Below are positions 15,898 to 24,679 of a stretch of DNA of 64,000 nucleotides, in pieces. Made by a program: the position numbers and the translations under genes. The DNA lies in contig RPOR01000004.1 in the NCBI GenBank assembly GCA_003820645.1, positions 6,388 to 70,387 of the forward strand, given 5' to 3'. The notes beneath the pieces are model-generated. The model saw only the letters and a program-made list of their open reading frames with translations. It made no database searches and had not been told where the DNA came from. Source of the stretch: Betaproteobacteria bacterium. Its GTDB lineage: Bacteria > Pseudomonadota > Gammaproteobacteria > Burkholderiales > SG8-41. Each line of letters starts with the position of its first letter. Positions within the stretch are counted from its first letter, which is position 1.

Positions 15898-16863
15898 ATG
15901 CACGCCACCCTCCCCTTGCTGGAAACAACTGATTTTCCGGCCATTCGCCGCCGGGCAACGGAGACCCTGCAGGTCAACCTCGGCTACCAGTGCAACCAGA
16001 GCTGCCTGCACTGCCATGTCAACGCCGGACCCGGCCGCACCGAGCTGATGGCACGTGACACCATGTTTGAAGTCGTCGCCTTTCTGAAAGCCGCCGCCAT
16101 CCGCACGCTGGACCTCACCGGCGGCGCACCGGAGCTCAATCCGCATTTCCACCTGCTGGTCGAGGCCGCGCGCAAACTCGACGTGCGGGTAGTCGACCGC
16201 TGCAACCTGACCATCCTGTTCGAACCCGGCCAGGAAAACCTCGCGCAATTCCTCGCCGATCAGCAGGTTGAAATCACCGCCTCGCTGCCCTGTTACCTCG
16301 AAGATAACGTCGATCGCCAGCGCGGCAAGGGTGTGTTCGGCAGCAGCATCCGCGCGCTGCAGCTGCTGAACCGCCTCGGCTACGGACAACCTGATTCAGC
16401 GCTGAAACTGAACCTGGTCTACAACCCGCAGGGCCCCGTGCTGCCTCCGGCGCAGCAAACGCTGCGGCGCGACTACCAGCGGCACCTGCTCGACCATTAC
16501 GGCATCGTGTTCAACGAACTCTACGTGCTGGCCAACATGCCGATACAGCGTTTCGGCAGTACGCTGGTCTCCAAAGGGCAGTTCAACGCTTACATGAACC
16601 TGCTGAAAACCGCCTATCGTCCGGACAACCTCGATTCGGTCATGTGCCGTTCGCTGCTGTCGGTGGACTGGCAGGGTTACGTCTACGACTGCGACTTCAA
16701 CCAGATGCTCGAACTGCCGATCGCCTGGAACAACCGCCCGCGCGTGCACCTTCGCGAACTGATCGGTGCCGACCTGACAGGCCACCCGATCGTGGTCAAG
16801 GACCATTGCTACGGGTGTACTGCCGGGCAGGGTTCGAGCTGCGGCGGCGCACTCGCAGGCTGA
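15898..16863 (+). CDS. ArsS-type radical SAM / Cys-rich C-terminal domain protein (Cys form)
   Basis: 'NLGYQCNQSCLHCHVNAGP' is a CxxxCxxC radical SAM motif. The C-terminus 'DHCYGCTAGQGSSCGGAL' matches the Cys-rich or Sec-containing tail of this family. ATG 15898 follows CAGGAG. Confidence 0.8.
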   Translation: MHATLPLLETTDFPAIRRRATETLQVNLGYQCNQSCLHCHVNAGPGRTELMARDTMFEVVAFLKAAAIRTLDLTGGAPELNPHFHLLVEAARKLDVRVVDRCNLTILFEPGQENLAQFLADQQVEITASLPCYLEDNVDRQRGKGVFGSSIRALQLLNRLGYGQPDSALKLNLVYNPQGPVLPPAQQTLRRDYQRHLLDHYGIVFNELYVLANMPIQRFGSTLVSKGQFNAYMNLLKTAYRPDNLDSVMCRSLLSVDWQGYVYDCDFNQMLELPIAWNNRPRVHLRELIGADLTGHPIVVKDHCYGCTAGQGSSCGGALAG

Positions 16864-16895
16864 CTCCATTCACCGATGCGGAACAGGCAATCTCC

Positions 16896-18281
16896 ATGAT
16901 CGAGCCGGCATTCGCGATTTATTTCTGGGGCTTCCTGCTGCTCTACGGCGGCGTGATGTACGCCATCTCCCCGCATTCCCGCACCGACGCCAGTTTTTTC
17001 ATCGGCAGCGACGATGCCGGCCGCCCGGCCACCGAGTGGGCGCTGATGTGCAGCATTTTCATCAGCTGGATCTTTGCCAAGTCCGTGACCAACGCCGCCA
17101 ACCTCGGCGCAGCCTACGGCGTGGTCGGCGGACTGGCGTACGCCGCGTACTGGCTGTCGATCCCCGTCGCCGGCATCGTCATTTACTGGCTGCGTACGCG
17201 GCATGGCGCCACCGGACTGGTGTCTTTCATCATCGGCCGCTACGGCCGGCTCGCCGCCCTGGCTTTCACCCTTGCCATCCTGATCCGGCTCTATAATGAA
17301 GTGTGGAGCAACACGGCGGTGGTCGGCGCCTATTACGGTCAGTCCGGCGAATGGACGTTCATCGCTTCCGCACTGCTGTTCACCGCGGCGACGCTGGTCT
17401 ACAGCATCAAGGGCGGGCTGCGCAGTTCCATCGTCACCGATGTCATCCAGGCGGTGCTGTTCGTCTTCGTACTGGGCGTGGTGTTGTTCCTGGTGTTGCC
17501 CAAACACGGCGTGGGCACGCTGCTGGGCGTAGGTGATTTCCGCCTGAGTGCCGGCGTCGACCTGCTGCTGGTGGCGCTGCTGCAGGTGGTGTCCTACCCC
17601 TTCCACGACCCCGTGCTCACCGACCGTGGCTTCATTACCCGCGAAAAACCCATGCTGCGCGCGATGATCGTCGCCGGCGTGCTCGGTTTCCTCTGCATAT
17701 TTGCGTTCAGCCTGGTCGGCGTGCATGCCAAGCTTGAAGGGCTCCCCGCCGGCGACAACATGCCGGGCGCCGTCGCGGTGGCCTTCGGTACTGTTCCCTA
17801 TCTGCTGATGACCGTGGTGATGATCATGGCCGCAGGTTCGACACTGGACTCGACGTTCTCGTCGGTCGCCAAGTCCGTGGGCCGCGAACTGCCGATGCTG
17901 GCGGACCGCACGCCGGGACCGCGCGCTATGGTCATCGGCATCTGGACTATGCTGGCCTTCGCGATCCTCGGCAACCTGCCGATGATCGCCGGCACCGACA
18001 TCCTGAAAGCCACCACCGTCAGCGGCACGATGGTGATGGGCCTTGCGCCGGTGTTCCTGCTGGCACCGCTGGTGAAACATTCACCGTGGAGTTTCCATCT
18101 TGCGTTCTGGCCGGGCGTTGCATTGGGCGTGCTGCTCGCCGCCGGCATGATTCCGCAGTCGTGGGCAATCGGTGACGGCAAATACGCGCTGCTGCTGGGC
18201 ACCAACCTCTACGGGCTCGCGATCTGCGTCGGCGGCTTCCTGCTGCCGCTGACCGTCCAGCGCCTGCGTGCGCCCGGCTAA
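16896..18281 (+). CDS. sodium:solute symporter (SSF)-like permease
   Basis: 461-aa polytopic membrane protein from ATG 16896. The 'GGLRSSIVTDVIQAVLFVFVLG' segment is SSF-like. The upstream part of the tracked ORF overlaps the rSAM 3' end and is discarded. Confidence 0.6.
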   Translation: MIEPAFAIYFWGFLLLYGGVMYAISPHSRTDASFFIGSDDAGRPATEWALMCSIFISWIFAKSVTNAANLGAAYGVVGGLAYAAYWLSIPVAGIVIYWLRTRHGATGLVSFIIGRYGRLAALAFTLAILIRLYNEVWSNTAVVGAYYGQSGEWTFIASALLFTAATLVYSIKGGLRSSIVTDVIQAVLFVFVLGVVLFLVLPKHGVGTLLGVGDFRLSAGVDLLLVALLQVVSYPFHDPVLTDRGFITREKPMLRAMIVAGVLGFLCIFAFSLVGVHAKLEGLPAGDNMPGAVAVAFGTVPYLLMTVVMIMAAGSTLDSTFSSVAKSVGRELPMLADRTPGPRAMVIGIWTMLAFAILGNLPMIAGTDILKATTVSGTMVMGLAPVFLLAPLVKHSPWSFHLAFWPGVALGVLLAAGMIPQSWAIGDGKYALLLGTNLYGLAICVGGFLLPLTVQRLRAPG

Positions 18282-23294: not shown

Positions 23295-23922
23295 AACAGC
23301 CCTGCTGGTATTTGCCAAGGCACCGGTCGCCGGCGCGGTAAAGACACGCCTGATACCGCTCCTCGGTGCCGGGGGTGCGGCCGCGCTGCACGGCCGGCTG
23401 ATTGTCCGGGCGCTCGCTACCGCACACGCAGCAGCACCCGACAAACTCGCGCTGTGGTGTGCGCCCGACGCCACCCATCCCTGGCTGCGGTCTGCCGCGG
23501 CACGATACCGCGCCGACCTGTGTGCCCAGCATGGCACCGATCTCGGTGCGCGCATGGCCCACGCCTTCGCCACCACGCTGCGGCAGACGAAATACACCAT
23601 CTGCATCGGCGCCGATTGCCCGGCGCTGACTCCGCAACACCTGCACGACGCCGCCGCAGCGCTGCGCACCGGCAATGATGCGGTATTCGTACCGGCCGAA
23701 GACGGCGGTTACGCGCTGATCGGCCTGGCACGCCATGTGCCGCAGCTATTTGCAGACATGGCCTGGGGTGAGTCGACCGTCATGGCGCAGACCCGTGCGC
23801 GCCTGCACGCAGCCGGGCTGTGCTGGCAGGAACTGGCCACGCTGTGGGATGTCGATCGCGCGGAGGACTATCTCCGGCTGCAACAATCGGGGTTGATGAA
23901 TGACTTGCCGTCGCCGGTTTGA
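23275..23922 (+). CDS. DUF2064 nucleotidyltransferase-like protein ('rSAM/selenodomain-associated transferase 1' type)
   Basis: 'ALLVFAKAPVAGAVKTRL' and 'VFVPAEDGGYALIGL' are DUF2064 signatures. It overlaps the upstream gene by 20 nt. Confidence 0.75.
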   Translation: MAGTSAETALLVFAKAPVAGAVKTRLIPLLGAGGAAALHGRLIVRALATAHAAAPDKLALWCAPDATHPWLRSAAARYRADLCAQHGTDLGARMAHAFATTLRQTKYTICIGADCPALTPQHLHDAAAALRTGNDAVFVPAEDGGYALIGLARHVPQLFADMAWGESTVMAQTRARLHAAGLCWQELATLWDVDRAEDYLRLQQSGLMNDLPSPV

Positions 23923-24679
23923 GTGGCTGCTGCTGGCCGCAGCGGTACTCATCGCCGGTGCCGCATTCGCCGTCGAAGATACTCTGGCAGTCGCAGCATT
24001 CTCGACCGCGCGGCCCGGCAGCTCACTGCCGGCGGGCTGGACACCGCTGGCGGCTTCGAACATCAAGACGCTGACGCGTTATACGCTGGTCGATGACGGC
24101 GGCGTCACCGTGCTGCGCGCCGAGTCGCAGGCCGGGGCATCGGGACTGTCGCGGCCATTGCGCGTGCATCCGGCGGAATTCCCGTGGCTGCGCTGGCGCT
24201 GGAAAATCGACAACCTGATCGCCGGTGCCGATCTCCGGACCAGGGAAGGCGACGACTTCCCGGCGCGGCTCTATGTGATGTTCGACTACCCGCTGGACAA
24301 GCTGCCGTTCCTCGAACGCAACAAACTGCGGCTTGCAAGGGCGCTGTTCGATCCCCATCTTCCTGCTGCGACGCTGTGTTATGTCTGGGACGGCAAGGCG
24401 AAGTTAGAGACGCTGGTGCCGAGCGCGTATACCGATCGCGTGAAGCTGATTGTCGTCGAGTCCGGCGCGACGCGCGTTAAACGCTGGGTCGATGTGGAGC
24501 GCAATGTCGCAGCCGATTTTCGTGCCGCGTTCGGCGAGGACGCGCCGGCCATCGTGGCGATCGCGGTGGCCACGGATACGGATAATACCGGCGCCTTTGC
24601 CACAACCTATTTTGGAGATATTGTGTTTTATAAACAAAGACTTGATAAATCACGGCCACAGGGCATTGCGCAGCCGTGA
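23900..24679 (+). CDS. DUF3047 domain protein with signal peptide
   Basis: Signal-like N-terminus. 'LRWRWKIDNLI...GDDFPARLYVMFD' is typical of DUF3047. It overlaps the upstream gene by 23 nt. Confidence 0.7.
   Translation: MTCRRRFEWLLLAAAVLIAGAAFAVEDTLAVAAFSTARPGSSLPAGWTPLAASNIKTLTRYTLVDDGGVTVLRAESQAGASGLSRPLRVHPAEFPWLRWRWKIDNLIAGADLRTREGDDFPARLYVMFDYPLDKLPFLERNKLRLARALFDPHLPAATLCYVWDGKAKLETLVPSAYTDRVKLIVVESGATRVKRWVDVERNVAADFRAAFGEDAPAIVAIAVATDTDNTGAFATTYFGDIVFYKQRLDKSRPQGIAQP

Follow-up and report, generated by a model that had tools for sequence, protein, structure and literature searches.

A conserved ArsS operon of a Betaproteobacteria genome, probably of arsenosugar type and without its own arsM

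What does a set of eight genes make when its first member encodes an ArsS-family enzyme of the radical SAM type (SAM, S-adenosylmethionine) and no arsM accompanies it? The question is raised by positions 15898-24679 of a 64-kb stretch of DNA (about 63% G+C; contig RPOR01000004.1 of the Betaproteobacteria bacterium assembly GCA_003820645.1), which was analyzed at its full length and is called the window here. An original prediction, made from the sequence alone, described these genes as an 'rSAM/selenodomain' cluster and leaned toward a selenium- or sulfur-containing product. We find that these eight genes make up a conserved operon and represent, in its Burkholderiales form, the ArsS gene set to which databases give the label "arsenosugar biosynthesis". 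The operon, which is probably of arsenosugar type and lacks its own arsM, probably functions in the synthesis of a 5-deoxy-5-arsinoyl-riboside, an arsenosugar-type compound.

The cluster is filled by eight partly overlapping plus-strand open reading frames (ORFs), g1-g8, at 15898-16863, 16896-18281, 18268/18292-19284, 19281-21413, 21722-22552, 22608-23294, 23263/23275-23922 and 23900-24679. In this order, they encode an ArsS-family enzyme, an SSF-like permease, a phosphoesterase-like protein, a VTT-flavoprotein fusion, a DUF547 protein, a GT2 glycosyltransferase, a DUF2064 protein and a DUF3047 protein. None of the ORFs is broken, and six of the eight pass a coding-type filter on the G+C content of third codon positions (GC3, 0.72-0.78), which g7 and g8 fail. 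Three junctions overlap from stop to start, namely the ATGA at 19281-19284 (g3/g4) and the overlaps at 23275-23294 (g6/g7) and 23900-23922 (g7/g8). Hidden Markov model (HMM) searches with Pfam and NCBIfam place seven of the eight proteins in families. The original prediction had thus read the co-directional arrangement, the three overlaps and the domains correctly, and its family placements stand for seven proteins, whereas the phosphoesterase-like g3 matches no model.

The g1 protein (15898..16863, + strand) scores 458 bits against TIGR04167 (cut-off 300) and 185.8 bits against PF12345/DUF3641, and its sequence is 100% identical to a protein of a Betaproteobacteria metagenome-assembled genome. 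It contains the radical SAM motif CNQSCLHC and a DUF3641 C-terminal domain that ends in CYGCTAGQGSSCGG, the Cys-rich tail that had been noticed at the outset, with a codon for Cys and not for selenocysteine (Sec). Sec in the ArsS tail is optional for the family. Sec variants were sought in the tails of 80 proteobacterial relatives and none was found; no tail has an in-frame stop, and 69 of the 80 carry the full Cys motif. Both the radical SAM motif and the Cys tail are invariant among 12 aligned close relatives. The family comprises at least 8,000 candidates, all at E<=1e-10, is very common in uncultured Burkholderiales and is now named by NCBIfam as 'arsenosugar biosynthesis radical SAM (seleno)protein ArsS' (TIGR04167). 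Sequence searches of the PDB with ArsS, g3, DUF547 and DUF3047 returned nothing useful. According to passages of PMC13598754 (citing Cheng 2021) and PMC12159101, characterized ArsS uses the 5'-deoxyadenosyl radical derived from SAM to adenosylate trivalent dimethylarsenite, DMAs(III), and yields 5'-deoxy-5'-dimethylarsinoyl-adenosine (DDMAA). A passage of bioRxiv 10.1101/2022.09.23.509062 (citing Xue 2019) adds that, in Synechocystis, arsS shares a transcript with arsM and is responsible for the first committed step. Homology and the literature together show g1, at the level of sequence, to be an ArsS orthologue.

Two more proteins of the operon belong to families from the same database set. 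The soluble GT-A (GT2) glycosyltransferase g6 (22608..23294, + strand) scores 281 bits against TIGR04283 (cut-off 182). The DUF2064 protein g7 (23275..23922, + strand, with a possible start at 23263) has a CofC/MobA-like nucleotidyltransferase fold; it scores 194 bits against TIGR04282 (cut-off 134), is recognized by PF09837 and NTP_transf_3 and matches PDB entry 3cgx at 1.5e-16. ArsS, TIGR04283 and TIGR04282 all exceed their curated cut-offs, which favors the arsenosugar assignment. Both transferase families had been named correctly in the original prediction, but their 'rSAM/selenodomain-associated' names are outdated, because NCBI now uses 'arsenosugar biosynthesis glycosyltransferase'. The NCBIfam 'arsenosugar biosynthesis' set, formerly 'rSAM/selenodomain', consists of TIGR04167, TIGR04282, TIGR04283, TIGR04169 and NF038099, and three of these five families exceed their cut-offs in the window. 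Unlike that set, the window has no NF038099 ArsM and no TIGR04169 protein (an AhpD-like protein upstream of the operon reaches 14.6 bits, where the cut-off is 120), and its phosphoesterase partner comes from a family that no model covers.

Does this gene set recur in other genomes? We assembled 80 ArsS-centered loci, one genome per species, in which ArsS is 61-85% identical to that of the window. Gene presence was defined by tblastn with the window proteins (E<=1e-8, >=50% coverage) and counted in the 52 loci whose flanks span no less than 3 kb upstream and 8 kb downstream; since the loci were picked by similarity, the numbers do not amount to an unbiased census. Among the carriers encountered, Pseudomonas peli, Rubrivivax rivuli and Caldimonas manganoxidans are in culture. 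GT2 is present in 43 and DUF2064 in 40 of the 52 loci, an association with ArsS that is beyond chance. The VTT-flavoprotein follows with 33 loci, g3 with 16, DUF547 and DUF3047 with 13 each and the SSF permease with 6. The complete eight-gene order recurs only in the loci L001 (assembly JAIEPF01) and L002 (assembly JAURHM01), at protein identities of 67-87% (71-87% for the eight genes of L001), and both continue with the same Rieske oxygenase and rhodanese genes as the window. L004 lacks g2, g3, g5 and g8 and has the same Rieske and rhodanese genes after its g7. This recurrence of some genes and shifting of the rest indicate that the operon consists of a conserved core (ArsS, GT2 and DUF2064) and a variable shell. 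Synteny had been anticipated in the original prediction, and the counts also bear out its view that the SSF permease, the VTT-reductase, DUF547 and DUF3047 are members beyond the named families. The same data bear on the idea that the eight genes came together by accident or are the remains of a decaying cluster. A 308-nt, hairpin-bearing spacer between g4 and g5 and the differences in accessory content among genomes could be taken as signs of decay. However, eight intact ORFs, six of them passing the GC3 filter, three overlapping junctions, the order shared with L001 and L002 at the identities given above and core genes that stand together in about 80% of the loci make this idea extremely improbable.

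If the operon is of arsenosugar type, where are the arsenic genes? An HMM scan of about 55 ORFs of the window identifies no arsM, arsC, arsB, acr3, arsR or arsH, and tblastn of ArsM proteins against the 64-kb window yields no match, so that the absence of arsM, arsC, arsB and acr3 stated for the cluster holds across the window. The relatives differ in this respect. When the unexplained ORFs of the ArsS loci were clustered and scanned with NCBIfam, ArsM-family methyltransferases appeared within the cluster in 13 of the 80 loci, and those of L003 and L023 match NF038099, 'arsenosugar biosynthesis ArsM' (549 bits for L003). In a neighbor-joining tree of ArsS, the loci with ArsM turn up in scattered positions, with L003 beside the clade of the window. 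The case that the original prediction had set against itself, arsM as the consistent partner in close relatives, is thus realized in part: ArsM accompanies ArsS in 13 loci including L003, but none lies within 10 kb in L001, L002 and L004. A gene for MTA phosphorylase abuts ArsS in seven of the 80 loci, in both orientations. As a separate observation, the sole nucleoside phosphorylase gene seen in the window, of the broad-specificity PpnP type, lies 14 kb upstream at 1573-1917.

The view from ArsM strengthens the connection. Metagenome contigs were scanned with an alignment of the L003 and L023 ArsM proteins, which produced 80 ArsM-centered loci, and the same tblastn procedure was applied. Among the 27 loci with full flanks, ArsS is present in 24, DUF2064 in 18, DUF547 in 17 and GT2 in 11. 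The loci L081-L088 share an order of ArsS (71-74% identical to g1), often a PiT/CysP-like permease, ArsM, g4 (66-75%), g5 (64-72%), g6 (66-71%) and g7 (54-56%), which directly ties the g4-g7 block of the window to ArsM, and L087 goes on with the rhodanese and sulfide-dehydrogenase-like genes of the window. The slot between ArsS and g4 is the variable position: it contains the SSF permease and g3 in the window, L001 and L002, ArsM in L003 and L087, PiT and ArsM in L082, L084, L086, L089 and others, and nothing in L004 and L010. Distant, mostly marine clusters, whose ArsS is 43-50% identical, have the order DUF547-ArsS-DUF2064-purine nucleoside phosphorylase (PNP)-ArsM-DUF547-GT2. Recurrent neighbors among all 80 ArsM-centered loci are PNP just upstream of ArsM (39 loci), the TIGR04169 peroxidase-like protein (33), the NF045521 rhodanese (25), an FAD oxidoreductase (20), a NapH-like Fe-S membrane protein (16), an OlsE-like hydroxylase (11) and a PrpE-like phosphoesterase (8). 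DUF547 is a widespread member of arsenic-linked clusters, and the VTT-flavoprotein fusion belongs to those of proteobacteria.

Two of these neighbors deserve separate mention. In 11 loci, among them the four named above, a phosphate or sulfate permease of the PiT/CysP type sits between ArsS and ArsM and could serve a dedicated uptake of arsenate for biosynthesis and not for detoxification. The OlsE-like fatty-acid or lipid hydroxylase lies directly downstream of ArsM in L130 (11097-11996) and in 10 other marine loci, a position that hints at lipid-linked arsenic products.

The uneven distribution of ArsM allows a different interpretation, in which the ArsM-less subtype has diverged to another substrate or product, for instance a different metalloid such as antimony or a non-metalloid 5'-deoxyadenosyl adduct, and the 'arsenosugar' label is over-extended. 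About 85% of the ArsS-centered loci have no ArsM within 10 kb; the SSF permease, g3 and DUF3047 are found in none of the 27 ArsM-centered loci; and only cyanobacterial ArsS has been characterized in the literature found. However, ArsS proteins with and without ArsM fall in the same 61-85% identity range and form no separate clades, the invariance of the radical SAM motif and Cys tail in the aligned close relatives is accompanied by a tail motif that recurs over the 80 loci, and the g4-g7 block is 54-75% identical to that of ArsM-containing clusters. Furthermore, L023 of the ArsS-centered set contains both g3 and ArsM. We thus regard a change of substrate as unlikely.

What, then, is the meaning of the selenium genes beside the operon? 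Back to back with it lies a five-gene block on the minus strand (12043-15615) that encodes two selenoproteins, a GrdB/PrdB-like protein (in-frame TGA at 12793-12795) and an AhpD-like protein with a CHY-U motif (TGA at 13654-13656), together with a regulator of the TetR type, a DUF302-like protein and a paralogue of the AhpD-like protein that has Cys. After each of the two TGA codons there is a stem-loop of about -18 kcal/mol. The selA (41619-43106) and selB (43259-45307) genes lie 17 kb from the cluster. The coordinates and in-frame TGA codons agree with the original description of both groups. selA, selB, a thioredoxin-reductase-like gene (45308-46225) and the gene for tRNA-Sec (48586-48676) stand together at 41619-48676; selA, selB and tRNA-Sec are general machinery. 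The idea of a selenoprotein operon that travels with the cluster was rejected as functional evidence, because the five genes of the block have a counterpart in none of the 160 related loci, ArsS- and ArsM-centered. Upstream of ArsS, L001, L002 and L004 have ispA-dxs-folE-ribBA, with ispA of L001 ending about 490 bp from ArsS, and in the window ribBA, folE, dxs and ispA are found just beyond the selenoprotein block. This arrangement in relatives suggests that the block of about 3.6 kb is probably a local insertion between ispA and ArsS and that the selenium neighborhood of the operon is probably coincidental.

These observations decide how much weight can be given to a sugar or nucleoside that contains selenium or sulfur as the product, with the ArsS-like enzyme adenosylating a selenium or sulfur species. 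Such a product would fit the adjoining genes with in-frame TGA codons, the presence of selA, selB and tRNA-Sec in the window, the rhodanese and sulfide-dehydrogenase-like flavoprotein genes downstream, the '(seleno)protein' in the NCBI name of ArsS and the lack of ars genes in the window. It would also fit the TIGR03169 flavoprotein, whose 'N-terminal to SelD' family is sometimes fused to SelD and which occurs in 16 of the 52 related loci. However, the adjoining genes recur in no related locus, Sec in an enzyme reveals nothing about its substrate and is indicated in none of the 80 tails, ArsM resides inside near-identical cluster architectures, and selD and ybbB were seen neither in the window nor among the recurrent neighbors. 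We consider a selenium or sulfur product quite improbable, and the original lean toward one is not upheld. A striking selenium neighborhood can arise by the coincidence of an insertion.

How would an arsenosugar-type operon without arsM operate? The operon has no arsM, and methylated As(III) must therefore come in trans, either from an unlinked arsM or through the uptake of methylarsenicals. ArsS, as homology and the literature show, would adenosylate the trivalent methylarsenical. Adenine would next be removed by a nucleoside phosphorylase, for which many related clusters, but not this operon, have PNP or MTAP genes, to leave 5-arsinoyl-ribose-1-phosphate. Gene context further suggests that the DUF2064 protein activates the sugar phosphate as a nucleotide sugar, that the small GT-A enzyme g6 transfers this sugar to a glycerol-type or lipid acceptor and that g3 trims a phosphate or nucleotide ester. 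The VTT-flavoprotein may, at the membrane in which it resides, maintain the arsenical or a thiol carrier in the reduced state. DUF547, DUF3047 and the SSF permease would act at or across the envelope, where the reduction of pentavalent or thiol-bound arsenicals and the handling of a lipid-linked product are possible roles for the envelope proteins. The glycosyl transfer step has a conceivable parallel in the GpgS/GpgP system. The nearest solved relatives of g6 are GpgS proteins, a weak similarity (E 5e-5) that covers only the N-terminal 85 residues and makes GpgS an analogy and not a family assignment. By this analogy, a GT-A enzyme whose acceptor is a phosphorylated three-carbon compound, with a phosphoesterase acting after it, would fit the known glycerol-type aglycones of arsenosugars.

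The g3 protein (18292..19284, + strand, with a possible start at 18268) gives no match in Pfam or NCBIfam even at E<=1, and thus matches neither the model for the phosphoesterase partner of this radical SAM family, which we take to be TIGR04168, nor any other NCBIfam model. Its AlphaFold (AF2) model (pLDDT 85.9) nevertheless has a metallophosphoesterase fold: Foldseek retrieves 1nnw, 2gju, SapH (3qfm) and 3rqz at E values of about 3e-10, probability 1.0 and target-normalized TM-scores of 0.67-0.74, and SapH is an Ap4A hydrolase/phosphodiesterase. Metallophosphoesterases bind a dinuclear metal center through the motifs DxH, GD, GNH[DE], H and GHxH. In the alignment, g3 retains GD, GN and VHGD but has no complete set of these motifs. 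Motif I is GGLYGN, with Gly and Tyr where Asp and His are expected; motif III is GNVE, with Val for its His; and motif V is SHTC, with Cys for its second His. A GCGC pair is among several invariant Cys residues. One metal site has probably been lost, and g3 could be either an enzyme with a mononuclear center or a binding protein; that it binds As(III) through its cysteines is speculation.

The g3 family is large, with 7,212 matches in one search that form 1,022 clusters at 50% identity, and most of its members are unnamed. Predicted fusions join a g3 domain to ArsS (P0436, P0501 and P0492) or to DUF2064 (P0372). These are database gene calls, some of which may be artefacts, and they support a common pathway for the fused proteins. 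One fused g3 homologue has a weak match to Metallophos_2. Two alternative identities of g3 were rejected. The shared slot between ArsS and g4 raised g3 as a replacement for ArsM, but L023 has ArsM directly followed by g3, and hhalign detects no similarity between g3 and the PrpE-like phosphoesterase of the marine clusters.

The remaining members of the operon are membrane or exported proteins. The g2 permease (16896..18281, + strand) has about 11 hydrophobic segments and is weakly SSF-like (31 bits against PF00474, gathering score 22.8; 36.6 bits against TIGR00813, below the cut-off of that model), and g3 comes next in 8 of the 10 loci that contain g2. The g4 protein (19281..21413, + strand) joins an N-terminal VTT/DedA (TVP38) membrane domain (PF09335) to a class-I flavoprotein disulfide reductase (PF07992, PF00070 and PF02852; Pyr_redox_2 and Pyr_redox_dim). 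An intact CLNTGC redox motif at residues 270-275 lies behind about six membrane helices, and HIYPTLAE is located near the C-terminus; the FAD and NAD(P)H domains, the CxxxxC motif and the dimerization domain with its His-Glu pair identify a class-I reductase. g4 remains under the cut-offs of all named equivalogs (496 bits against 620 for NF004991), and its copies in L081-L087 come after ArsM. The g5 protein (21722..22552, + strand; PF04784, 91.5 bits) is a DUF547 protein that has a signal peptide, is exported and contains one CASVGC (CxxxxC) motif. The g8 protein (23900..24679, + strand; PF11249, 244 bits) is a DUF3047 protein that hydropathy marks as exported or membrane-anchored, and its AF2 model is unusable (pLDDT 52.5).

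Several observations weigh against an arsenosugar function. Neither arsM nor a gene for an arsenate reductase or for arsenic efflux was found in the 64-kb window, ArsM is missing within 10 kb in L001, L002 and L004, which are the closest relatives, and only about 15% of the ArsS-centered loci have ArsM in the cluster. The operon contains no nucleoside phosphorylase gene, and g3, with three ligands of one metal site missing, may not be a hydrolase. The TIGR03169 flavoproteins keep a selenium link conceivable. The roles given to TIGR04282 and TIGR04283 are annotation by context, and a test of either was not found in the literature searched, which likewise yielded no functional study of DUF547, DUF3047, the flavoprotein fusion or proteobacterial arsenosugar clusters. 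The view that the product is experimentally undefined past the ArsS step, held in the original prediction, therefore remains accurate. Arsenosugar reports were found only for cyanobacteria and, in the literature searched, none for heterotrophic Betaproteobacteria. Arsenosugar-type synthesis nevertheless remains the probable function. A more specific proposal, that ArsM-less operons of this type, in which the SSF permease and the Cys-rich g3 take the place of PiT and ArsM in relatives, scavenge the methylated arsenic of other microbes and turn it into an envelope-associated arsenoriboside or arsenolipid, is tentative and has perhaps a minor chance of being correct. If it is true, common freshwater and soil Burkholderiales are unrecognized arsenosugar producers, and g3, the VTT-flavoprotein, DUF547, DUF2064 and GT2 are the long-missing enzymes that act after DDMAA. 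If these bacteria make arsenoribosides, a part of environmental organoarsenic cycling is credited to the wrong organisms.

The closest characterized counterpart is the ArsM-ArsS pathway of Synechocystis sp. PCC 6803 (Xue 2019; Cheng 2021, as relayed in passages of PMC13598754, PMC12159101 and bioRxiv 10.1101/2022.09.23.509062). It employs the same radical SAM family, with TIGR04167, DUF3641 and the Cys-rich tail, a likeness by family and not by direct sequence comparison. ArsM lies beside ArsS in Synechocystis, as it does in relatives of the cluster, whereas the operon of the window has no arsM. The host is a heterotrophic-type Betaproteobacteria metagenome-assembled genome, and the window adds an SSF permease, a new metallophosphoesterase-like family, a VTT-flavoprotein fusion and DUF3047. 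The arsinothricin enzymes ArsL and ArsM offer a second comparison, since ArsL is likewise a radical SAM enzyme that forms a C-As bond and works with ArsM, but it is a non-canonical one that transfers a 3-amino-3-carboxypropyl group and belongs to another family with another product (bioRxiv 10.1101/2024.02.01.577332). In the literature searched, the only steps of arsenosugar synthesis with assigned enzymes are those of ArsM and ArsS. The present comparison offers a candidate for each later step, namely a nucleoside phosphorylase, DUF2064, GT2 and a phosphoesterase, as well as envelope proteins.

How the operon is expressed can be approached through its noncoding segments. A promoter-like site, TTGACC-16-TAGAAT (10 of 12 consensus positions), lies upstream of ArsS at 15701..15728 on the + strand, as judged by a consensus scan. 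In the divergent intergenic region, two GAATG...CATTC inverted repeats, GAATGATCATTC (15725-15736) and then AGAATGCAATGATTCT, occupy 15725-15753; they overlap the -10 element of the promoter-like site and could, from their sequence and position, form an operator, perhaps for the nearby TetR regulator. The g4-g5 spacer contains a perfect hairpin at 21619..21652 with a 14-bp stem and a 6-nt loop (GGTTACTTTTCTTG/GCGAAG/CAAGAAAAGTAACC). It is present in a single copy in the window and in none of the 160 related loci, and is a possible processing or attenuation site. Consensus matches place a weak terminator-like site 3' of g8 and a strong hairpin at 25975-26001, 3' of the Rieske gene. An Rfam scan identified no riboswitch or other RNA family inside or before the operon.

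Two plus-strand genes follow g8. The first, d1 (24834..25937), encodes a Rieske/Ring_hydroxyl_A oxygenase, and the second, d2 (26072..26923), a two-domain rhodanese that resembles 3-mercaptopyruvate sulfurtransferase. Both come after the cluster in L001, L002 and L004, and d2 comes directly after g7 in L087; d1 is a possible extra member of the cluster and d2 a possible associated gene. The NF045521 rhodanese of the ArsM-centered loci is from a different family than d2.

The window contains further features apart from the operon. At 3146-5399, a chrB-b RNA motif (3146-3197) directly precedes chrB and chrA, which encodes the chromate transporter. A gene for an EgtD-type histidine methyltransferase (Methyltransf_33, 381 bits; 61274-62278, - strand) adjoins an MFS transporter gene and may be part of an ergothioneine-type pathway, with no EgtB identified in the window. 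Finally, a tricarboxylate-utilization-like run at 47441-56147 comprises a TctC receptor, a weak PrpD-like ORF, the FAD tricarballylate dehydrogenase TcuA and three MmgE/PrpD paralogues.

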